Source: Eubacteriales bacterium (GTDB lineage Bacteria > Bacillota > Clostridia > Oscillospirales > CAG-272). Taken from it: a stretch of DNA of 57,488 bases. A program made the position numbers and the translations under genes. The stretch is taken from positions 1 to 57,488 of the forward strand of contig JAZSGX010000005.1 in the NCBI GenBank assembly GCA_045532975.1, in the 5' to 3' direction. Below the pieces are notes generated by a model. The model was not told the DNA's origin. It searched no databases and saw nothing but the letters and a program-made list of their open reading frames with translations. Positions 1,265 to 25,873 of the stretch are shown here, one piece after another. The stretch's first letter is position 1; each line of letters starts with the position of its first letter.

Positions 1265-2713
1265 ATGAATATCAGCGACAGGCATTTAACAATGCTTTGC
1301 GATTTTTATGAGCTTACCATGGCTCGTGGCTATTTTCATTCCGACATTAAGAGCAAAATCGCATATTTTGACGTGTTTTTCAGAAAAGTTCCTGACGGGG
1401 GCGGATATGCCATTGCTGCCGGGCTTGAGCAAATTATTGAATATATCAAATCCATAAGGTTTGAAAAGGACGACATTGAATATCTTCGCTCCAAGAAAAT
1501 TTTCGACGAGGAATTTTTAGCCTATCTTGAAGGATTCCGCTTTACAGGTGATATTTGGGCTGTTCCCGAGGGTACGGTTATCTTTCCTAACGAGCCTATT
1601 ATGACTGTGCGCGCACCCGCTATGGAAGCGCAGTTCATAGAAACCTTTATTTTGCTCATCTTTAACCACCAATGCTTAGTGGCGACAAAGGCTTCAAGAA
1701 TAGTTCGCGCTTCACAGGGACGGGCAGTTTCGGAGTTTGGCTCACGCAGGGCTCACGGACCGGACGCTGCAATTTACGGTGCCCGTGCCGCATACATCGG
1801 TGGCTGTAACTCTACAGCCTGCGCTCTTTCCGATATTATGTTCGGTGTTCCCGCAGGTGGCACAATGGCGCACTCCTGGGTGCAGATGTTTGACACCGAA
1901 TACGAAGCGTTCAAGGCCTACTGTCAACTCTATCCAAACAATCCAACCCTTTTGGTTGATACCTATAATGTGCTTGAAAGCGGAATCCCAAACGCTGTCA
2001 AGGTATTCAAAGAGGTGTTGACCGAGGAGCAAAGGCAGAATTGCGCGGTAAGGCTCGACTCGGGTGACATTACCTACTTAACTAAGAAAATTAGAAAAAT
2101 TTTAGATAACGCAGGACTTACCAAGTGTAGAATTACCGTTTCCAACTCCCTTGACGAGTACATCATCCGCGACATTTTGATGCAGGGTGCCTGCGTTGAT
2201 GCCTTTGGAGTTGGCGAGCGCATGATAACCTCTAAGAGTGAACCCGTTTTCGGTTGCGTTTACAAGCTGAGCGCGGTGGAAAACGAGGACGGCAAAATCA
2301 TTCCTAAAATAAAAATCAGCGAAAACATTATAAAAATCACCAACCCGGACTTCAAGAAGCTTTACCGCTTCTATTCCAAGGATACAGGCAAGGCAGAGGC
2401 AGACCTTTTGACAATGCACGACGAGGTTATAGACCCGACCGAGCCATACGAGCTTTTTGACCCCGCCCACGTTTGGAAGAGAAAGGTTATGGAAAATTAC
2501 GAGCTTCGCGAAATGCTCGTACCTATTTTCAAAAACGGAGAGTGCGTTTATAAGTCCCCTTCCGTTACGGAAATCCGTGAAAACTGCAAGCGCGAGCTTG
2601 GTACAATGTGGGACGAGGTTTTAAGATTTGAAAACCCACACAACTATTATGTAGACCTTAGCCAAAAGCTTTGGGACGAAAAGCACAGCCTACTCAAAAA
2701 AAGACACAAATAG
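1265..2713 (+). CDS. pncB: Nicotinate phosphoribosyltransferase
   Basis: Motifs DFYELTM, EFGSRRAHG, GTMAHSW, LVDTY, RLDSGD; SD AAGGAG. Confidence 0.95.
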   Translation: MNISDRHLTMLCDFYELTMARGYFHSDIKSKIAYFDVFFRKVPDGGGYAIAAGLEQIIEYIKSIRFEKDDIEYLRSKKIFDEEFLAYLEGFRFTGDIWAVPEGTVIFPNEPIMTVRAPAMEAQFIETFILLIFNHQCLVATKASRIVRASQGRAVSEFGSRRAHGPDAAIYGARAAYIGGCNSTACALSDIMFGVPAGGTMAHSWVQMFDTEYEAFKAYCQLYPNNPTLLVDTYNVLESGIPNAVKVFKEVLTEEQRQNCAVRLDSGDITYLTKKIRKILDNAGLTKCRITVSNSLDEYIIRDILMQGACVDAFGVGERMITSKSEPVFGCVYKLSAVENEDGKIIPKIKISENIIKITNPDFKKLYRFYSKDTGKAEADLLTMHDEVIDPTEPYELFDPAHVWKRKVMENYELREMLVPIFKNGECVYKSPSVTEIRENCKRELGTMWDEVLRFENPHNYYVDLSQKLWDEKHSLLKKRHK

Positions 2714-2751
2714 TAATTTGCGCGCCCAAACGGGCATAGAAAGAAGATATT

Positions 2752-3549
2752 TTGAAAAATTTAAAGATTCTTGCGCTGGGTGACGTTGTCGGTCCCCGCA
2801 GCGTTGAATACCTAAAGAAAAGCTTATGGAAATACCGCAAAAATAACGGTATTGATTTTGTGGTAGCAAACGGAGAAAACGCAAGCGAGCCAAACGGTAT
2901 TGACAAGGAAACCGCAAGGGCTTTGTTTGATAGCGGCGTTGACGTTATTACCACAGGCAATCACATTTGGCGAAAATCGGGAGTTTTCGGTTTTCTTGAC
3001 GATTGCGACGAAATATTGCGCCCCTTAAACTTTCCAAGCACCAATCCCGGTCACGGCGAGGTTATTGCCACGGTTAACGGATATCGTGTGCTTGTGATGA
3101 ACGTTTTGGGTCAAGCGTATATGGACACTCCTTGCGACCCCTTTGAGGCAGTGGAAAAATGCCTTGATAGAAACAAAGGCGGATACGATTTTGCCATCCT
3201 TGACATACACGCGGAGGCAACGGGTGAAAAAAAAGCGATTGCTTATGATTTCTCCGACCGAGTGTCGATTGTTTTCGGTACGCACACTCACGTCCAAACA
3301 AACGATGCGCAAATATTAGAGGGAAAATGCGGTTATATAACCGACCTCGGTATGTGTGGAGATAGCGATAGCATTTTAGGTGTAAAGAAGGAAGCGGTCA
3401 TCCACAAATTAAAGACAAAAATGCTCTCTCGATTTGATTTTGCAACAGACGGCGAAATTGAATGTAACGGTGCAATTTTTGAAATCAGTACAAACAGCTG
3501 GCAGTGTGTAAGCTGTCAAGCAATAAAATTTACAGGAGATATATTATGA
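2752..3549 (+). CDS. ymdB: YmdB-family metallophosphoesterase (TIGR00282-like)
   Basis: GDVVG, NGEN, TTGNH, RPLN, DIHAEATGEK, GTHTHVQT, TDLGMCG; TTG start. Confidence 0.9.
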   Translation: MKNLKILALGDVVGPRSVEYLKKSLWKYRKNNGIDFVVANGENASEPNGIDKETARALFDSGVDVITTGNHIWRKSGVFGFLDDCDEILRPLNFPSTNPGHGEVIATVNGYRVLVMNVLGQAYMDTPCDPFEAVEKCLDRNKGGYDFAILDIHAEATGEKKAIAYDFSDRVSIVFGTHTHVQTNDAQILEGKCGYITDLGMCGDSDSILGVKKEAVIHKLKTKMLSRFDFATDGEIECNGAIFEISTNSWQCVSCQAIKFTGDIL

Positions 3550-4826
3550 AAACAAGCGAGCTTTTAAGCTACATCAAAGCAGGTAAATTAAACACAAAAT
3601 TGGCTGACATTTACGGTGAAGAAAACGTATCTACACAGGTTGAAAGATATACGGAAGCAGTTTCCGACTTTTTATCCCTCTACGGTGAGCGTGAGGTAAC
3701 ACTTTTCTCCGTTCCCGGTAGAAGTGAAATTTCCGGCAACCACACCGACCACAACCACGGCAAGGTGCTTGCAGGCTCTATCAATCTTGACATTATCGCT
3801 GTTGCTACAAAAACCAACGACGGTGTTATTACAATCAAAAGCAAGGGCTTCCCAGAGGACGTAATTGACACAAATTCATACACATCCCCCAATGAAAAGG
3901 ACTTTTTCACCTCAGGCGCGCTTATTGCAGGCATGGCAAAGGCGTTTGTAAATGCAGGCTATGAAAAGGGCGGCTACCTTGCGTACACAACATCAAACGT
4001 ATTCAAAGGCTCCGGCCTTTCCTCTTCCGCTGCCTTTGAGGTTATGGTTGGTAACATTCTCAACTATTTCTATAACGACGGCAAGGTGGAAAACACCGAA
4101 ATTGCCAAAATGGCTCAATATTCCGAAAACGTATTTTTCGGTAAGCCTTGCGGACTTATGGACCAGATGGCTTGTGCTGTTGGTGGATTTGTTTACATTG
4201 ATTTCAAGGACACGAAGAACCCCATTATTGAAAAAATCCCCTTTGACCTAAGCGCTCAGGGTTATGCACTTTGCATTGTAAATACAGGCGGCAACCACGC
4301 AGACTTGAACGAGGACTATGCATCCGTTCCTGCAGAAATGAAAAGTGTTGCTAAGCTTTTCGGTGCAGAATATTTAAGACAAATTTCAAAAAAGCGTGTG
4401 CTTGATAACGTTAGCGCAATCCGTGAAGCAGTTGGAGACAGAGCCATTTTGCGTTCAATCCACTTCTTTAACGAAAATGAGCGTGTTACGAAGCAGGCTC
4501 GCGCCCTAAAGAACGGTAACGTTTCAAATTTCTTTAGATACACAAAGGAGTCAGGTCGCTCCAGCTTTATGTACCTCCAAAACGTATTTACCACAAAGAA
4601 CGTACAGGAGCAGGGCCTTTCCTTGGCTCTTGCAATTACCGACTCTGTTATGAGTGGCAAGGGTGGCGCATTCCGTGTTCACGGTGGTGGCTTTGCAGGT
4701 ACAATCCAAGCGTTCGTACCGTTTGCTATGGTTGAAAAATACCGTGCAGCAATTGACAGCGCTTTCGGCAAGGGTGCTTGCCACGTTTTGAGAATCCGTC
4801 CATACGGCGCAATTAAGGTGCTTTAA
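3546..4826 (+). CDS. galK: Galactokinase (GHMP kinase)
   Basis: GRSEISGNHTDH, GSGLSSSA, CGLMDQ, GGGFAG; start moved to ATG 3546 behind SD GGAG. Confidence 0.85.
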   Translation: MKTSELLSYIKAGKLNTKLADIYGEENVSTQVERYTEAVSDFLSLYGEREVTLFSVPGRSEISGNHTDHNHGKVLAGSINLDIIAVATKTNDGVITIKSKGFPEDVIDTNSYTSPNEKDFFTSGALIAGMAKAFVNAGYEKGGYLAYTTSNVFKGSGLSSSAAFEVMVGNILNYFYNDGKVENTEIAKMAQYSENVFFGKPCGLMDQMACAVGGFVYIDFKDTKNPIIEKIPFDLSAQGYALCIVNTGGNHADLNEDYASVPAEMKSVAKLFGAEYLRQISKKRVLDNVSAIREAVGDRAILRSIHFFNENERVTKQARALKNGNVSNFFRYTKESGRSSFMYLQNVFTTKNVQEQGLSLALAITDSVMSGKGGAFRVHGGGFAGTIQAFVPFAMVEKYRAAIDSAFGKGACHVLRIRPYGAIKVL

Positions 4827-5650
4827 TGATAAGCGCTTACACGCTTTTTTCCGGCTCACGCGGAAACTCTCTGTATATAAAAAGTAGCAAGACAGAAATT
4901 CTTATCGATGCAGGAAAATCCTGCGGAGCAATAGAAAAATCATTGTCGTACTTGGGAACAAGCTTGAAAAATATATCGGCAATTTTCATAACTCACGAGC
5001 ACGCCGACCACACAGGCGGGCTAGAAATTATATCAAAAAAATACCAAATTCCCGTTTATATGACTGCGCCCTCCTATGACAACCATGTACGCATAGGCTC
5101 TTACTTAAAACGGTTTGCTAAGCGTATGGACGTAGAATTTTCCGTGACCGTTGGCGCTATTTCTGTTTCATCATTCCCAATTCCCCACGATAGCGCGCAA
5201 AACGTAGGCTACATAATATCGGACGGAGAGGACATTTTTGGCATTGCCACTGACATTGGACATTTAACAGAAGCTGTTGGAGAACATCTTTGCTCCTGCA
5301 AGCGAGTTATTGTCGAGTCCAATCACGATGTGAAAATGGTAAAGAACGGGCCTTATCCTCAGCACTTAAAAAATCGCATTTTGTCCCAAAACGGTCACCT
5401 GTCAAATGACAAATGTGCTGAGCTTTGTGCGTATCTTTGCGACCACGGGGTTGAGGAAATTACCCTTGCCCACCTGAGCCAAGAAAACAATTTACCGAAA
5501 TTAGCTTACGAAACAGTAAAAAATCAGCTTTGCGCCTGTGGATTTGAAAGCATCCCGTTGAAAATTGCCTTTGCGGACATTACCGTTTGCGCAACTGACG
5601 GTAATTCGTACCCATATCCAATCAACGAAATAGCAAGGAGCGAAAAATGA
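4826..5650 (+). CDS. MBL-fold metallo-hydrolase (YycJ/WalJ-like)
   Basis: SGSRGN, IDAG, THEHADH, PHD, ATDIG, ESNHD, GHLSN, AHLS. Confidence 0.88.
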   Translation: MISAYTLFSGSRGNSLYIKSSKTEILIDAGKSCGAIEKSLSYLGTSLKNISAIFITHEHADHTGGLEIISKKYQIPVYMTAPSYDNHVRIGSYLKRFAKRMDVEFSVTVGAISVSSFPIPHDSAQNVGYIISDGEDIFGIATDIGHLTEAVGEHLCSCKRVIVESNHDVKMVKNGPYPQHLKNRILSQNGHLSNDKCAELCAYLCDHGVEEITLAHLSQENNLPKLAYETVKNQLCACGFESIPLKIAFADITVCATDGNSYPYPINEIARSEK

Positions 5651-6375
5651 CAGATTTCCAAAAGAAGCTTTTATCCGTTGCCAATCAAAATAAGGCAACC
5701 AAGAATTTAATAAGTGAAGAAAACGCAGCCTTGCTTGAAAAGTTAACCTCACATATGCTGGAGGTTAACAAAAGCCTCAACCTGACCGCCATCAAGGACG
5801 AGAACGGTGTTATTTTAAAGCACCTTGTGGATTCAAGTGCATGCGTGCCTTACATTCCCGAAAGCGCCCGTCTTTGCGACATTGGCTGTGGCGGTGGCTT
5901 TCCCACCCTTGTTATCGGTGCTTTGAGGGAGGACGTGTCGATTTTAGGCGTTGACAGTGTAACAAAAAAGGTAAACTATGTGTCCGATACCGCTTCGCTT
6001 TTAGGGCTAAATAACGTTTGTGTATCCAACGCTCGCGCCGAGGAAATGGGACAAAATAATGCTTACCGCGAAAGCTTCGACGTGGTCACTGCCCGTGCGG
6101 TTGGACGTTTAAATCTGATTTGCGAGCTTGGCTTACCTCTCGTTAAGGTAGGCGGTTGCTTTTTGGCAATGAAGTCCCTTTCAACCAACGAGGAATTACA
6201 GGAAGCCAAAAAAGCCATTTCCCTTTTAGGCGGCAGCGTCGAAACAGTTAAGGAATACAGCTTGACCGATGGTCAAGAGGCTCTTGAGCGCACTATTGTA
6301 GTGATAAGAAAGGTAAAAAGCACACCACCCCAATACCCACGAAACAACTCACAAATTGCTAAAAAACCACTTTAA
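5647..6375 (+). CDS. rsmG: 16S rRNA (guanine-527-N7) methyltransferase
   Basis: NLTAI, KHLVDS, DIGCGGGFP, RAEE, TARAV, terminal YPR...KKPL. Confidence 0.93.
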   Translation: MTDFQKKLLSVANQNKATKNLISEENAALLEKLTSHMLEVNKSLNLTAIKDENGVILKHLVDSSACVPYIPESARLCDIGCGGGFPTLVIGALREDVSILGVDSVTKKVNYVSDTASLLGLNNVCVSNARAEEMGQNNAYRESFDVVTARAVGRLNLICELGLPLVKVGGCFLAMKSLSTNEELQEAKKAISLLGGSVETVKEYSLTDGQEALERTIVVIRKVKSTPPQYPRNNSQIAKKPL

Positions 6376-18787: not shown

Positions 18788-20833
18788 TTACTTTCTTTCG
18801 TTCTTTGGCACCTTAGTCGCAAGCTGAGCAGGTACCTCCTCGTATCTTACAAAGTGGAATGTAAAGTCGCCACGACCCTGTGTCATTGCGCGAAGTGCGA
18901 TAACGTAGTCAACCATTTCAGACTTTGGAACCTCTGCTTCAACAATAGTGTACTTAGGACGCTTTGGATTTGGTTCCATACCCATTACTCTGCCGCGACG
19001 CTTGTTCAAGTCACCCATAACGTCACCAACCATATGCTCAGGCACGCTAACCTTCAAAACACCAACAGGCTCAAGGAGTACAGGATTTGCATTAACAAGC
19101 TCCTTATAAGCCAAACGAGCCGCAAGCACAAAGGAAATTTCGTTAGAGTCAACATCGTGATATGAGCCGCCTGTCAAGTCAGCCGCCAAATTAACCATTG
19201 GATAGCCGAGAAGCACGCCCTCCTTCATAGCTTCCTTAAGACCCTTTTCAACTGCTGGGTAGTAACCCTTTGGCACTTCACCGCCAACAACGCTTTGAGT
19301 AAAGGTCAAGCCCTCTTCCTCACCGTGTGAGAATGTAATCTTAACGTGACCGTACTGACCTGCACCACCGGACTGCTTTTTGTGCTTTCCTTCGGTTTCC
19401 AAGCGTTTCTTAATTGTTTCTCTGTACGCAATCTTTGGTGTTTCAAGCTTTACGTTAACACCGTATCTGTTCTTTAGCTTGCATACAACTGTGTCAAGGT
19501 GAACGTCACCGATACCCTTCAAAAGAAGCTCGCCTGTTTCAACAAAGTTTTCGTACTTAACGGTCTTATCCTCATCAAGAATCTTTGCAATAGAGGTGGC
19601 AACCTTGTCCTCATCCTTACCATCGGTCTTAATTGCCATTGTCATATTAGCCTCAGGGAATTCAATCTTCTTATATTCCATATCGGAGGTTTCGCAAAGA
19701 GTATCGTTTGTATTTGTATTAGCAAGCTTGGAGATAACGCCGATGTCACCACAAGCAAGGCTGTCAATTTCTGTCTGCTTCTTACCGCAGATTGTGAAAA
19801 TCTTGGAGAACTTTTCAACCTGACCTGTTGTTGTGTTCTTAAGCATCATATCCTTCTTTAATTCACCGTTCATAACCTTGAAGAAGGAAACACGGCCAAC
19901 AAATGGGTCAGCAATAGTCTTAAATACCATCAAGCGGCACTCACCCTCACGCTCAATAGCAACGTCATTACCGTTTACGTCCTTTTCAACCTTCTTTGCA
20001 GTATGTCTTGGGAAGGACTCCGCAATAGCGGTCAAGATTGAGTAAATACCTCTCATATTTTCGGATGAGCCGCACCATACAGGAACGATAGCGCCTGAAA
20101 TCATACCCTCGTGGAGTGCCAGCGCACATTCCTCTTGAGTAAATCTCTCACCTGCGAAGAACTTTTCAAGCATTTCCTCATTGGTTTGTGCAACGGCTTC
20201 CATAAATACCTCACCGTACTTCTCCGCAACAGCGCGACGGGATGGGGTCATATCCTCCTCCTGTCTTTCACCGTTAGGAAGATAACGGAAGCATTTCATT
20301 GTCATTAGGTCAATCATCATAGTACCTGTCGCTTCCTTAACAGGAATAAATACAGGACAAAGAGCGTTTCCAAACTCGTCACGGAGCTGGTTAAATACGC
20401 TGTCAAAATCAGCATCAGGGTCGTCGCACTTGTTAACAAAGAAGGCTCTTGGAATACCCGCCTCCAAAGCATTGTACCAAGCAATCTCCGCGCCAACCTC
20501 TAAGCCTGCCTTTGCATCAATATTAATAAGAGCCGCATCAGCCACACGAAGTGCACTTGCAACCTCACCCGCAAAGCCCAAAAAGCCCGGGCAGTCAAGA
20601 AGATTAATCTTAACGCCGTTCCACTCAAGATTTACAACGGATAAGCCTATTGAAATACCTCTTTTTATTTCCTCGCTGTCATAGTCGGAAACAGTATTAC
20701 CGTCGCAAATTCTACCAAGGCGGTCAGTTGCCTTTGCCTTGAAGAGCATTGACTCGATAGTAGCGGTCTTACCGCTGCCGCTGTGTCCGATAATGCACAC
20801 GTTTCTTACATTGTTAGTGATAAATTTTGCCAT
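18788..20833 (-). CDS. Elongation factor G paralog (EF-G2/FusA2-like)
   Basis: RNVCIIGHSGSGKT, RGISI, DCPG, NKCD, DPFVG, YRETI, HKKQSGGAGQYGHV, GSYHDVDS, LLEP, MTQGRG. Confidence 0.92.
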   Translation of the reverse strand: MAKFITNNVRNVCIIGHSGSGKTATIESMLFKAKATDRLGRICDGNTVSDYDSEEIKRGISIGLSVVNLEWNGVKINLLDCPGFLGFAGEVASALRVADAALINIDAKAGLEVGAEIAWYNALEAGIPRAFFVNKCDDPDADFDSVFNQLRDEFGNALCPVFIPVKEATGTMMIDLMTMKCFRYLPNGERQEEDMTPSRRAVAEKYGEVFMEAVAQTNEEMLEKFFAGERFTQEECALALHEGMISGAIVPVWCGSSENMRGIYSILTAIAESFPRHTAKKVEKDVNGNDVAIEREGECRLMVFKTIADPFVGRVSFFKVMNGELKKDMMLKNTTTGQVEKFSKIFTICGKKQTEIDSLACGDIGVISKLANTNTNDTLCETSDMEYKKIEFPEANMTMAIKTDGKDEDKVATSIAKILDEDKTVKYENFVETGELLLKGIGDVHLDTVVCKLKNRYGVNVKLETPKIAYRETIKKRLETEGKHKKQSGGAGQYGHVKITFSHGEEEGLTFTQSVVGGEVPKGYYPAVEKGLKEAMKEGVLLGYPMVNLAADLTGGSYHDVDSNEISFVLAARLAYKELVNANPVLLEPVGVLKVSVPEHMVGDVMGDLNKRRGRVMGMEPNPKRPKYTIVEAEVPKSEMVDYVIALRAMTQGRGDFTFHFVRYEEVPAQLATKVPKNERK

Positions 20834-21039: not shown

Positions 21040-22050
21040 TTACTTGGAATACGGTTCTATTGAGAATGACAAAAGCCAATCGTTAGTAAGGTCTTCTTCA
21101 AGCCCTTTTAAGCCAACATATAACCTTACGAAATAGTATTTATCGCCTTCAATGCAAAACAATTCCACGTTTGCAGGAATATCTGCATTATCTGAAAAGT
21201 AGTTTTTCTGCACGTATATTGTCTTTTCTTCTGTTTTCAATTCATATTGAAGCGTTGCAAGAGTGTCACGTTTTGAATAAAAATACTTCCCCACAATGTC
21301 AGTGCCATCAATAACCTTGGAAACTACGTCTTTATAAGAAGCGTTATAAGAAGCGTTTACATAACTACGCTCATATATCTCATTAAATGTTTCTTTGTCA
21401 TATACATCAAGATGTCCCACACTGTCGCCACTTTCGGTTTCCATAGAAAACGAGTAGTGCTTTCCATACCACACAAAGTGGCTTGTTAGAATACCATCTG
21501 GTATCGCAGGGTAATATAGGTTTTTCAAATCACATATTTCAAAACCTACTTCGCTCTTTGAAAACGCATTAACTAAGATTTTCTTGTTATACGCGCTTAT
21601 ATTTCCATTTAATATTTCATCCAAAAAAATTTCAATGCTTGAAAAACTCAAGCACCCAATTCCTGTATTTCCTTCGTATACGGATGCGTCATAAAAAACC
21701 ATATAGCATTTATCAAGCTCATAATTGTACATTATTTCATAATCACGCTCGTCCGTTGGTACTGCTGGCGCAGTGTCTTCCTCATTAGGTGGCGGATAAT
21801 AGCTGGTTGGTGGGTCGGGCTGTTCGGATGTTATTACACTATCCTCGCTTGATAAAGCATCTTCTCCTGAATGTGTACTGTCAACAGTGCTCTCGTTATT
21901 AATATCACTTTTATTTTCTGCTTCGCTATTGCAGTCAATCGTTGGATTTTTGCTTACATCACTGTCTGAAAAATCAGAGCAACTGCAAACCATCACGGTT
22001 AATGATAATATAATTATCACTAAAATCAAATATTTTAATATGTTTTTCAT
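21040..22050 (-). CDS. Hypothetical lipoprotein with Ser/Asp-rich linker
   Basis: Signal peptide with lipobox-like VCSC; low-complexity linker followed by a globular region. Confidence 0.75.
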   Translation of the reverse strand: MKNILKYLILVIIILSLTVMVCSCSDFSDSDVSKNPTIDCNSEAENKSDINNESTVDSTHSGEDALSSEDSVITSEQPDPPTSYYPPPNEEDTAPAVPTDERDYEIMYNYELDKCYMVFYDASVYEGNTGIGCLSFSSIEIFLDEILNGNISAYNKKILVNAFSKSEVGFEICDLKNLYYPAIPDGILTSHFVWYGKHYSFSMETESGDSVGHLDVYDKETFNEIYERSYVNASYNASYKDVVSKVIDGTDIVGKYFYSKRDTLATLQYELKTEEKTIYVQKNYFSDNADIPANVELFCIEGDKYYFVRLYVGLKGLEEDLTNDWLLSFSIEPYSK

Positions 22051-22053
22051 CTT

Positions 22054-22353
22054 TTACTCCTCGTTATTATTCGCAATGTTTCCTTGTATAACTATGTTAG
22101 AGGTCAATCCTTCCATATATTCTTCGCAGGAAGTACAAAACCCCATTGCTTCATTTGTTACGTCCAACACACTAGAATAGTAACCGTAAGCGGTATATTG
22201 GTCGAATTTTCCCATAACGCAAAACGTTCCGTTTTGGTCGTGTCCTTCGTTATTATACACATCATCCATTCCAAAGCAATGCGCCTCGTATGAGCCGTTT
22301 GATAACCTAAAATGCTTTACGTTTTCTTCACGTAAGGAAGATATTTCTTCCAC
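22054..22353 (-). CDS. Hypothetical protein or gene remnant
   Basis: 99-aa ORF with GTG start and no well-placed SD, ending 4 nt before the lipoprotein start. Confidence 0.45.
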   Translation of the reverse strand: MEEISSLREENVKHFRLSNGSYEAHCFGMDDVYNNEGHDQNGTFCVMGKFDQYTAYGYYSSVLDVTNEAMGFCTSCEEYMEGLTSNIVIQGNIANNNEE

Positions 22354-23408: not shown

Positions 23409-23445
23409 AAAAAATGCACTCGAAATCCGAGTGCATTTTTTATTT
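23409..23445. terminator. Bidirectional terminator between convergent genes
   Basis: AAAAAATGCACTCG-AAATC-CGAGTGCATTTTTT. Confidence 0.85.
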
Positions 23446-23447
23446 TA

Positions 23448-25613
23448 TTATTTTTTAATCTTGTATTCAACGTGCATTGCGTGACCGCCTGTTAGGACAA
23501 TCATTTCCATTGCAGGAACGGAGAATTCACCTGCGCGCACCTTAAGTGGCTTATCAAGAACGCCACGGGCAAGAACCTTAACGCTCTTAGCCTTCTTGTC
23601 TATGAGCTTCTTGTCCTTCATAGACTGAATTGTAACGTCGTCACCGGCATTATAATTCTTAGAAAGCGTATCAACGTTGATAATAGCCTTCTTGTTGTCC
23701 TTAGCGGTGATATAATCAACACCCTCCTCAAGAACAACCTCGATATGCTTTTCTTCAACAATTTGATGTACTTCCTCAGCGCTTACGCTTTCAACAACAA
23801 GCTCAGGCTCAATTGCGGGAGCTTCAATCACAGGCTCTTCTTCAACAATTGGCTCAGGAATTACCTCAACAATTGGCTCTTCAACAACAGGCTCAGGAAC
23901 AACCTCAACAATTGGTTCCTCAATAACAGGCTCTTCCTTAGGCTTAGAGGACATAACAACTACCGCATCGTCTGCAATGAGTGCCTTAATGAGCTTGCGA
24001 GCAATAAGTGGCTCGTTTGGCTCATATGGGTACTGTGCAACGTAGTCAACAGTCTTTGCCTTTTCGTCCTTTTCAATGCCAAACTTAGCCATTGTGATAT
24101 CAACAAGCTCCTTCGCCTTTCTAAGACCAAGACCGCTCTTAATCTTAACAAGCATTGGAACATCCTCAAATATCTTTGCATCAATTGCCTCGTGGTGATA
24201 CTTGGACTCATCAAACTCATTCGGATCAAGTGCACAGTACAGACAAATCGTCTTACCGCGAAGCTTAACCTTAAAGAGCTGATCTCTACCTCTGTTGTAG
24301 CTATCGAACTTCCAGCTAAATCTGGACTTAACACCCTTATAGGACATAATGTGGTTCTTAAGCTCACTATAGTAATCCTTAACGGTATCGTCACTCTGGA
24401 TAAGGTTAGCTTTAAAGCTACGGCTGTACTTAATGTCAATCTTGTTACCTTCGTTGTCATAGTAGGTAGGAACAAGAACAGGCTCTGCCTCTTGTATAGG
24501 CTCTTCAACAATTGGCTCGGGAACAACCTCGACAACAGGTTCTTCAGCCACAGGCTGTGGAATATATTCCTCGATAACCTCCTCGTAAAGCGGCTTTTCA
24601 ACCTCTTCAACAACAGGTTCCTCAACAACCTCAACCTCAATTTCAGGCTCAATTGCCGGTTCTTCTTCAACCACAGGCTCAGGAATAACCTCGATAACAG
24701 GTTCTTCTTCAACTACAGGCTCTTCAGCAACTGCCTCAACCACAGGCTCTTCGATTTCAGGTGCAACCTCTTCAGCAACTGCCTCAATTGAGTAGAGAGG
24801 AATTGAAAATACAGAATCAATCTCGCCTCTTTCAATAACAACGTCACCGTCGGGAACAACGCTCCAGCCGATAAACTTACTGTCGCTGTTGTATTCCTTG
24901 GGAAGCTGTAGCTTAATGTAATGAGTTTCTCTGTAAACAACTTTGTCAATGCTTGAACGGTTAAAGGTAACCTCAACAATGCTCTGACCGTCAAAGCCCT
25001 CGTTTGAAACAACGATGTCGCTATCGTCAAGAACAGATACAGGGTAAAGGTTTATTGTGAAAACATAATTTTCCTGTCCATCCTTGAACAAGATATCTCC
25101 GTCGGGAGCAAAACCCCAGCCAGCAACATCTTCCTTAGGCAAACAAGCGTCAATTCTGAAGCCCTCGCTTGCAACAATCTCATCAGTTTGAGTGTCAACG
25201 TAATTAAACTTAACGAAAACACCCTCGCTATAATCAATCTCCTTAGGAGGCTCTATTTTTGTAACAGGCGCCGGCACATAATCGTAAACAGGAGCCTCCG
25301 CCCACATAGCATAAAGCTTAACGGGCTTAAGCAAAACAATTTTGTGCTTTGTCAACGGGCGCGTGCCCTTTTCATTTTTACTCCATCCAACAAGCTTTTT
25401 GCCTTTTTTGTTGGCACTATGTATCTTTACACGGCTAAGCCAGGAGTGCCTTTCCTTATGAATAACCTCCTTGCCATCCTCGCTGTCGTAATATATCACT
25501 TGGAAACGCAGCACCAAAAGAAGCACCGTAAGCAGTGCAGCTACGCCAAGAACTATACCGCACCAAACCAAGCTAATATTAAAAATGTCGATGCCAGCAA
25601 AATAGTTTGTCAT
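23448..25613 (-). CDS. Membrane-anchored multidomain protein with EEPVVE repeats and a C-terminal ribosomal uL15-like domain
   Basis: N-terminal TM helix; three GW-containing repeats; Glu/Pro/Val linkers; C-terminus IINVDTLS...GDDVTIQSMKDKKLI...VKVLARGVLDKPLKVRAGEFS.PA.E.I...GG matches the uL15 globular-domain pattern. Confidence 0.85.
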   Translation of the reverse strand: MTNYFAGIDIFNISLVWCGIVLGVAALLTVLLLVLRFQVIYYDSEDGKEVIHKERHSWLSRVKIHSANKKGKKLVGWSKNEKGTRPLTKHKIVLLKPVKLYAMWAEAPVYDYVPAPVTKIEPPKEIDYSEGVFVKFNYVDTQTDEIVASEGFRIDACLPKEDVAGWGFAPDGDILFKDGQENYVFTINLYPVSVLDDSDIVVSNEGFDGQSIVEVTFNRSSIDKVVYRETHYIKLQLPKEYNSDSKFIGWSVVPDGDVVIERGEIDSVFSIPLYSIEAVAEEVAPEIEEPVVEAVAEEPVVEEEPVIEVIPEPVVEEEPAIEPEIEVEVVEEPVVEEVEKPLYEEVIEEYIPQPVAEEPVVEVVPEPIVEEPIQEAEPVLVPTYYDNEGNKIDIKYSRSFKANLIQSDDTVKDYYSELKNHIMSYKGVKSRFSWKFDSYNRGRDQLFKVKLRGKTICLYCALDPNEFDESKYHHEAIDAKIFEDVPMLVKIKSGLGLRKAKELVDITMAKFGIEKDEKAKTVDYVAQYPYEPNEPLIARKLIKALIADDAVVVMSSKPKEEPVIEEPIVEVVPEPVVEEPIVEVIPEPIVEEEPVIEAPAIEPELVVESVSAEEVHQIVEEKHIEVVLEEGVDYITAKDNKKAIINVDTLSKNYNAGDDVTIQSMKDKKLIDKKAKSVKVLARGVLDKPLKVRAGEFSVPAMEMIVLTGGHAMHVEYKIKK

Positions 25614-25873
25614 CCTACTCTATCCGCCTTTCTTACTATATAGTATAAATTTGTAATTTTATTATACAACACTAAAAATTTTTTGTCAATAAATATTTTG
25701 AAAAAAATATCAAAAATCTCACACTCCACCCGTTATTTTTTAAAATATCACTATTTTCGCAACGATTTTTTTGAAAAATTCCGCTGATTTTTTTACTCGC
25801 ATAAAATTTACTATTGATTTTGTCGTAATTCTCCGCTATAATAGTATATGTAAAATTTGAAGGGAGTTTTAAA

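Follow-up and report, generated by a model that had tools for sequence, protein, structure and literature searches.

The window analyzed here is the whole 57,488-nt stretch of contig JAZSGX010000005.1, from a Eubacteriales bacterium (Oscillospirales, CAG-272). Our subject is one gene on its reverse strand, which encodes a 721-amino-acid (aa) protein, P0001, of modular build: a single transmembrane (TM) helix is followed by three GW-containing repeats, an acidic linker, a basic domain with a predicted double-wing fold, a second acidic linker, and a C-terminal tail related to ribosomal protein uL15 (Table 1). An earlier note on this DNA had described the helix, three InlB-B-like repeats, and acidic linkers, all of which are borne out by hydropathy, repeat homology, and composition, respectively.

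The gene, its locus, and its retention within the genus

That the 721-aa gene is genuine, conserved, and kept by purifying selection follows from its homology, its promoter-like and terminator-like sites, its codon bias, and ratios of nonsynonymous to synonymous substitution (dN/dS) well below 1 in all domains. Codon adaptation of the open reading frame (ORF) lies at the 93rd percentile among 1299 crudely called ORFs. Against the three closest orthologues, dN/dS is 0.03 to 0.08 in the middle domain, 0.09 to 0.12 in the uL15 part, and 0.17 to 0.26 in the repeats; in more distant pairs, for which dS is near saturation, it rises to 0.26, 0.26, and 0.57, respectively. Four bovine-gut metatranscriptome runs from one study contain just 0.06 to 0.11 of the words, and contigs from these runs align along the gene, mostly at 90 to 99% likeness, at most a weak hint of expression; that the intergenic bin at 25676-25797 is without cover in all four runs proves nothing.

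The gene occurs in 22 of the 24 other genomes of the genus and is divergent from glyA at every locus where that side was visible. Of 34 genus genomes, 30 carry the double-wing domain and 25 the tail: the two occur together in 24, the double-wing domain without the tail in 6, the tail without the double-wing domain in 1, and neither in 3. All eight of the tail-less orthologues inspected stop soon after the double-wing domain, most with a terminator-like hairpin. Within the genus, the double-wing domain is the core and more conserved part of the protein, and the tail is dispensable. The module formed by these two domains is confined, in the source genome, to the 721-aa gene and a second copy cut by a contig end (G000:C75:3-1997, L026). 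At positions 2219-5999, contig C75 has the same glyA–fur–secG–rnr order as the window, at 71 to 78% nucleotide identity, and probably comes from a sister organism whose contig was co-binned.

Table 1. Coordinates in the window of the gene, the domains of its product, and the flanking signals.
Feature	Position	Strand	Basis and remarks
Whole gene, 721 aa (P0001)	23448..25613	-	ORF; monocistronic; divergent from glyA, convergent with HD-domain gene
Sigma-70-type promoter site, TTGACA-17-TATAAT	25661..25689	-	12/12 consensus match; sequence match only
Single transmembrane helix, aa ~13-38	25500..25577	-	Hydropathy; N-out/C-in predicted from charge asymmetry across relatives
InlB-B-repeat-like (Flg_new-like) unit 1, aa 38-106	25296..25502	-	Repeat self-homology, PF09479 profile
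B-repeat-like unit 2, aa 133-192	25038..25217	-	Repeat self-homology
B-repeat-like unit 3, aa 212-276	24786..24980	-	Repeat self-homology
Acidic Glu/Pro/Val linker 1, aa 277-384	24462..24785	-	Composition; length differs among relatives
Basic double-wing-fold domain (YjbR/YdhG/DUF5655/MotA-CTD-like; predicted), aa 385-555	23949..24461	-	Homologue model, alignment, dN/dS; most conserved part
Acidic linker 2, aa 556-606	23796..23948	-	Composition; far shorter in relatives outside the genus
Acidic helix-plus-strand cap, aa 607-640	23694..23795	-	Conserved; predicted to fold with the uL15-like core
uL15-like globular domain without uL15 N-terminal arm, aa 641-721	23451..23693	-	PF00828, hhalign, model and Foldseek
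Terminator-like hairpin between the 721-aa gene and the convergent HD-domain gene	23409..23441	.	Listed on + strand; T runs on both sides

The anchor, the uL15-like tail, and the middle domain

P0001 contains one hydrophobic segment (peak 19-residue windows at aa 13-38), ahead of which there is not one Lys or Arg. The C terminus is predicted to be cytoplasmic (N-out/C-in), the arrangement that the earlier note had asked to see checked, because of the charge asymmetry around the helix, the lack of a TM after the module, and the position of the module in signal-peptide-bearing giant relatives. By simple hydropathy rather than a trained predictor, a TM is called upstream in 226 of 263 tail-bearing proteins, with more Lys/Arg after it than before it in 219 of these 226, and none of the 263 has a TM downstream of the module; in the giant type-I relatives, the module comes after the signal peptide, the ectodomain, and the anchor. 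As a rule, InlB B-repeats are found outside the cell, and a cytoplasmic C terminus would therefore put those of P0001 on an unusual side of the membrane.

The three repeats are homologous to one another, and as GW units they resemble the InlB B-repeat, or Listeria-Bacteroides repeat (PF09479, Flg_new), from which they are divergent; they also lie on what is predicted to be the cytoplasmic side, not within an ectodomain. The PF09479 match in P0001 is under the cutoff (E 0.017; 15.7 to 19.1 bits versus 27), 20 of the 23 aligned orthologue repeat regions match Flg_new at E≤0.1 (best 2.6e-8), and the sole match of the repeat profile among PDB sequences is the InlB B-repeat 2y5p (E 0.28). Other proteins of the source genome contain 45 Flg_new repeat matches, a possible donor of these units. 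Both linkers are strongly acidic, with 38 Asp/Glu versus 1 Lys/Arg over aa 276-385 and 19 versus 2 over aa 556-615.

The last ~80 aa of P0001 are like bacterial uL15 (RplO; PF00828, TIGR01071) in both sequence and fold, as the earlier note had recognized. PF00828 matches aa 644-712 with E 2.7e-10 (40.9 bits versus a cutoff of 21.5), and a search with the last 102 aa gives 42 matches among PDB sequences at E≤1, which are named uL15, L27A, or eL18. The last 123 aa were modelled with AlphaFold2 from 98 alignment rows; the model has a predicted local distance difference test score (pLDDT) of 88.8 and a predicted TM-score (pTM) of 0.79, and its top Foldseek matches are uL15 chains from ribosomes, the best at 1.0 to 1.1 Å root mean square deviation (rmsd) over ~70 residues. 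The full-length RplO profile TIGR01071 is matched over positions 68-142 of 144 only (38.1 bits versus 77.95), and it is because the match is confined to these positions that we regard the N-terminal arm as absent, again in line with the earlier note. That note had also called for a separate canonical rplO in the genome: this gene, encoding 146 aa, lies between rpmD and secY in the spc cluster, on contig C105 of the source genome, and its product shares 37% identity over 70 columns with the tail (hhalign probability 98.2).

P0001 differs from uL15 in lacking the arm, in its length of 721 aa, in its membrane anchor, in its location beside glyA and outside the spc cluster, in being additional to rplO, and in having a tail with an acidic cap and an altered helix start that falls in a clade of its own. 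A quick, unrooted tree of 76 columns, with sequences from overlapping genomes, has one long branch that separates 98 uL15-like domains from 28 canonical ones (Shimodaira-Hasegawa-like approximate likelihood ratio test, 100). A short-frame PF00828 gene is also present in 39 of 40 carrier genomes (27 of the 30 that were fetched are recognized as canonical), and some genomes have up to four extra PF00828 copies. The archaeal and eukaryotic eL18 likewise duplicates the globular fold of uL15 while lacking its arm, according to the CATH-based fold assignment given in PMC11354259, but it is a ribosomal protein, and the tail is nearer to bacterial uL15 (Z 9.3 versus 5.6); the L18e equivalog NF003079 scores 20.7 bits on P0001, under its cutoff of 85.

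All 99 tail copies retain the Asn, Lys, Leu, Gly, and Ala that do not vary in canonical uL15, and 96 have an added Arg (these counts exclude four misfiled canonical rows). The start of the helix is changed, from Lys-Phe-Ser-Lys-Ser-Ala in canonical uL15 to Asp-Phe-Ser-hydrophobic-Asp-Ala in the tail: the position before the FS motif is Lys in 18 of 24 canonical sequences but Asp/Glu in 80 of 99 tail copies, and the helix-start position is Ser/Thr in 23 of 24 but Asp/Glu in 70 of 99. The last uL15 helix of the tail gains hydrophobic residues, and the median charge is +5 for the tail versus -1 for the canonical domain. The residues at the helix start are, we presume, contacts to 23S rRNA phosphates near helix 29, which a literature search did not confirm. 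Helices H29, H31, and H88 are described as shifting in the absence of uL15, bL33, and bL35 (bioRxiv 10.1101/2022.03.10.483802). It is likely that the tail can no longer take the place of uL15 on 23S rRNA, and the 721-aa protein is not a uL15 by membership, although it shares the fold.

For the middle of the protein, the earlier note had reported a basic globular domain at ~24070-24430, without an identity; the domain is present, but it is longer than that span (Table 1), and it is here predicted to have a double-wing fold. The fold was modelled not on P0001 but on a compact homologue, P0158, which shares 37% identity with P0122, itself closely related to P0001 (16-row alignment, pLDDT 76.9, pTM 0.51). 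The P0158 model divides into a uL15 domain (Z 9.3) and a double-wing domain, the latter matching YjbR (2fki; Z 8.4, rmsd 3.2, 97 aligned residues; Foldseek probability 1.00, E 0.021), a YdhG-like protein (9t2w; Z 8.1, rmsd 3.4, 105 aligned), and the DNA-bound C-terminal domain (CTD) of MotA (5jlt; Z 6.4, rmsd 3.4, 101 aligned). Further matches are Pspto_3016 (Z 6.8), frataxin/CyaY (6.7), Med17 (6.4), and a type III chaperone (5.1). Modelling thus predicts an alpha/beta double-wing (CyaY-like) fold for aa 385-555. What the domain has in common with YjbR/MmcQ (PF04237), YdhG/DUF1801, DUF5655, and the phage T4 MotA CTD is this fold and a basic sheet face, with weak Pfam and Atlas links in relatives; it differs in being longer (~165 aa), below the Pfam cutoffs, tethered to the membrane, and often in tandem in relatives, whereas the known double-wing members are either small and soluble or form part of restriction or transcription factors.

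Across 173 nonredundant copies (<60% identity), the median net charge of the double-wing domain is +9. Its conserved Lys and Arg residues (K429, frequency 0.79; R431, 0.79; K448, 0.68; R452, 0.80; K454, 0.91; K490, 0.93; and K492, 0.76) alternate with core hydrophobics along the strands, as read from the alignment rather than from a surface calculation, and would therefore line the open sheet face. Frataxin carries an acidic ridge; the basic face suggested by the alignment would better fit a nucleic-acid saddle. The MotA CTD is described as straddling the DNA major groove in this manner (PMC6755090), and YjbR/MmcQ proteins are given as predicted DNA binders on the strength of their similarity to MotA (PMC7641849), although a further source presents the YjbR-DNA model as unproven (PMC3424535). 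A two-copy complex prediction for the compact two-domain module (78-row alignment) scored 0.01 versus a mark of 0.42, which is evidence neither way.

Distribution and domain shuffling across the family

Homologues number 671 in one size window, and a two-domain profile recovers 2268 clusters (50% identity) at E≤1e-30, including proteins with one domain only. A pattern scan of 185,579 species genomes gave 324 confirmed loci, the best 80 of which lie in Clostridia (Borkfalkia, Gallimonas, Coproplasma, Christensenellaceae, and others), Anaeroplasmataceae, Erysipelotrichaceae, and other Bacilli; the scan patterns derive from the family itself, and its tightness is hence partly self-selected. Every carrier seen is a metagenome-assembled genome. 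The distribution is patchy: none of 400 other genomes drawn from the phylum matches at E≤1e-25, a second PF00828 match is present in 3 of 201 genomes of the order, and 34 of 150 genomes drawn from the taxonomic family match, 4 of these via canonical uL15 alone. Several genomes match only one of the two domains (E≤1e-15).

Double-wing copies range from 0 to 7 per protein (316 proteins), the tail is single in 263 of 263 proteins and always ≤15 aa from the C terminus, and outside the genus the two domains lie almost next to each other, with gaps of 37 to 91 aa (78 loci, chosen for gaps of <110 aa). The N-terminal part is a short piece before the last TM, with no ectodomain, in 54 of 80 loci, as in P0001; at the other extreme are adhesins, up to ~6300 aa long, that begin with a signal peptide and contain Flg_new, MBG, or GLUG repeats. 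In many of these giants (among P0176-P0316), a first anchor helix is followed by a charged linker, a short hydrophobic segment, a second helix, and then the module, an arrangement that looks like the fusion of an adhesin gene with an independent tether gene; L176 and L182 have such genes as unfused neighbors.

Each domain also travels without the other. The double-wing domain occurs without the tail on DUF5305, DUF2357, GGDEF-EAL, and pilus-cluster proteins, and the tail occurs without the double-wing domain in TM-only proteins of SipW-type fibre loci and after a DUF1508 pair. The last arrangement is seen at L190:6531-8375, a membrane protein in which two DUF1508 domains (DUF1508/YegP is, we take it, nucleoid associated) replace the double-wing domain before the uL15-like tail. 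A GGDEF-EAL protein with a C-terminal double-wing domain (L175:6015-8972) adjoins a GT2 glycosyltransferase cluster, and a 404-aa protein with a double-wing C terminus (L177:4118-5329, P0317) is encoded among the genes of a type IV pilus cluster (pilin, prepilin peptidase, PilC, PilB), and three further genomes have comparably long frames with a double-wing domain. The N terminus of P0317 looks PilM-like, although Pfam and NCBIfam gave no match. Some proteins of 205 to 298 aa (P0126, P0131-P0137, P0139, and P0140) have no TM and consist of a short basic N terminus, charged helical repeats, and the uL15-like tail; these are possibly membrane-bound through an amphipathic helix. A single record, P0157, in which an EngA/Der-like GTPase N-terminal half is joined to the module, is probably a chimeric assembly.

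Conserved neighbors beyond close kin are absent across the 80 loci, and no translation genes recur there. In three loci (L178:6083-10987, L179:5448-9999, and L180:5221-6780), a TM-fused McrB-like gene stands beside a SipW-type peptidase gene and a fibre-subunit-like gene, and in L178 and L179 a McrC-like DUF2357 protein with several double-wing copies comes next, with no Pfam nuclease match. These loci fit CoCoPALM systems, which are described as TM/coiled-coil McrB plus McrC plus signal peptidase (Bell et al. 2024, PMC11090510), and they suggest what the McrC partner of such systems carries. Such related loci in the same bacterial family have genes for TM-McrB-like, double-wing-bearing DUF2357, and SipW-type peptidase proteins, but P0001 itself has no McrB or DUF2357 match in Pfam or NCBIfam, and its flanking ORFs are the HD-domain gene and glyA.

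Elsewhere in the window, positions 18788-20833 (-) encode a 681-aa EF-G-like GTPase, so identified from its sequence alone, with codon adaptation at the 95th percentile, and positions 21040-22353 (-) a predicted lipoprotein-like ORF of 336 aa with no family match in Pfam, preceded by a 99-aa ORF that resembles a fragment of a larger surface-protein gene.

Candidate roles of the protein

The family is real and uncharacterized, and it is of the membrane-tether kind. We found no paper on it in a literature search that covered few subscription journals, nor one that uses "uL15 family ribosomal protein", the name that NCBI gives to some members. The combination of an anchor, a flexible charged linker, and a ligand domain is familiar from ZipA, the FtsY A-domain, and HubP/FimV, while Noc and RacA-DivIVA link the membrane to the nucleoid and YqjD/ElaB bind ribosomes at the membrane. 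P0001 is like these in architecture or proposed role, but the ligand domains differ, and Pfam and NCBIfam scans of P0001 matched none of their families.

We favor, with a probability of roughly 0.4, the reading that P0001 is a membrane-to-nucleic-acid tether, most likely for chromosomal DNA. Its ligand and role we infer from the MotA/YjbR-like fold, the basic sheet face, the conservation of the core, the copy number, the topology, the DUF1508 pair that takes its slot in one protein, and its several copies in McrC-like DUF2357 proteins. The single-pass anchor would hold the basic double-wing domain in the cytoplasm on flexible acidic leashes; this domain would tie the nucleoid to the membrane by its grip on nucleic acid, which is most likely chromosomal DNA, bound with no strong preference for sequence. 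The uL15-derived tail, with its acidic cap, could serve as an accessory basic module that makes a second contact with nucleic acid or a partner, tandem double-wing copies in relatives may raise avidity, and through fusion with adhesins or with proteins of pilus or fibre loci, those surface structures would share this inner anchor point.

Several observations count against this reading. The fold of the middle domain comes from a homologue model, and DNA binding is predicted only; in P0001, aa 385-555 have no Pfam match, including to PF04237 (YjbR), PF18899 (DUF5655), and PF08818 (DUF1801), and YjbR is matched at E≤0.05 in just 2 of 78 relatives. (The five-copy P0184 alone passes the DUF5655 cutoff, by summed score; the Atlas gives unnamed clusters at 0.91 to 0.93, PF00828 at 0.88, and DUF5655/DUF3788 at 0.84 to 0.85, the last being a lead only.) The Z values of the fold matches are near the level that the tool calls common; the same fold class holds protein- or iron-binding members (frataxin/CyaY, Med17, and the type III chaperone); and MotA is the only proven DNA binder among the matches, binding by YjbR being a prediction. 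Possible ligands of the basic face also include RNA, anionic lipid, and the acidic linkers of the protein itself, and no neighbor pointing to chromosome biology is conserved across the 80 loci. Furthermore, most carriers belong to surface structures (adhesins, SipW-type peptidases, DUF5305 proteins, the pilus-cluster gene, and the EAL protein), which fits equally well a possible, if tentative, alternative: a cytoplasmic clustering or localization tag, in which the two domains would bring adhesins, SipW-type fibres, and pili together at one cell site by binding a shared protein scaffold, anionic lipid, acidic linkers, or each other in trans. That both domains moved independently to the tails of so many envelope proteins, including the giant Flg_new/MBG/GLUG adhesins, and to the GGDEF-EAL protein and the DUF2357 proteins beside a TM-McrB-like gene speaks for such a tag, as do the extra PF00828 copies of some genomes, the protein-binding chaperones of the fold class, the new hydrophobics on the last uL15 helix, and a pairing of basic domains with acidic linkers that may suit condensates. 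Against it, the majority of loci resemble P0001 in having no ectodomain, the source genome limits the module to this gene and the probable co-binned copy despite its many Flg_new repeats elsewhere, several genomes are matched by one domain only, and the positive charge of both domains disfavors their binding each other.

The earlier note had proposed a repurposed uL15 domain on an acidic tether, possibly anchoring ribosomes or RNA to the membrane; the repurposed domain and its tether stand, and a tether for RNA in the broad sense is possible, but ribosome anchoring is weakened by the intact uL15, the altered motif, and the loss of the tail in some genomes. We consider it unlikely that the tail, perhaps with help from the double-wing domain, keeps ribosomes or transcripts at the membrane through binding to rRNA or some other structured RNA, for example, for the export of very large surface proteins. 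Retention of the uL15 fold and its invariant residues, the added Arg, a charge more basic than that of canonical uL15, purifying selection, and codon bias suggestive of an abundant protein all agree with an RNA ligand, for which eL18, presented as a second copy of the fold on rRNA (PMC11354259), would be a precedent. Yet the canonical uL15 would occupy the rRNA site, the tail lacks the arm that anchors uL15 and is dispensable within the genus, its helix start (presumably the rRNA contact) has become acidic or hydrophobic, and translation genes do not recur nearby. Two further readings are far less probable. A reversed topology, with the C-terminal part outside as a receptor for extracellular DNA (ComEA-like) or another polyanion, is suggested by B-repeats directly after the TM and by the double-wing fusion inside a type IV pilus cluster; it is very improbable given the lack of positive charge before the TM of P0001, the opposite charge bias in 219 of 226 relatives, the place of the module behind ectodomain and anchor in the signal-peptide-bearing giants, and a source genome (91% complete) in which no pilus or competence ATPase over the cutoff was found. 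That the gene is a nonfunctional relic or chimeric assembly is scarcely credible: the partial loss of the tail in the genus and the exclusively metagenome-assembled carriers are outweighed by the 671 homologues, the retention in the genus, the low dN/dS, the intact promoter-like and terminator-like sites, and, weakly, the RNA-library contigs along the gene.

A bolder extension of the tether reading, which we hold to be rather doubtful, is a widespread and so far undescribed membrane-nucleoid coupling system of small-genome gut Firmicutes, in which a captured ribosomal domain and a DNA gripper, placed on adhesins and fibre machinery, would organize cells with lost or degraded MreB. MreB/Mbl is not found in any of the 34 genus genomes at E≤1e-28. 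The source genome has Mur ligases and transpeptidases, on which ground the hypothesis of a wall-less cell was rejected. Among 40 other carriers, one has a canonical-scoring MreB (E<1e-100) and about half have a divergent copy, many Christensenellales-type carriers having only a divergent MreB-like gene; in the family draw, 80 of 150 genomes have MreB at E<1e-100. A strict anticorrelation is unsupported, MreB being present in 5 of 17 clear double-wing carriers (hand count) and in many tail-only genomes, and the association of carriage with MreB loss is only a lead, with many exceptions and with kin that are not independent.

As a whole, a conserved uL15-like clade ends thousands of membrane proteins of gut Firmicutes, giant adhesins included, and the label "uL15 family ribosomal protein" can mislead both annotation and marker-gene counts. 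P0001 adds to this the occurrence of both domains within one ectodomain-free protein, along with evidence that the tail is dispensable, which moves the focus to the more conserved double-wing domain and away from the uL15 tail; being compact, it offers two small soluble domains open to direct assay. If the tether reading is true, these proteins would be a new means by which abundant, uncultured bacteria of the gut link their chromosome (or RNA) both to the membrane and to adhesion structures.

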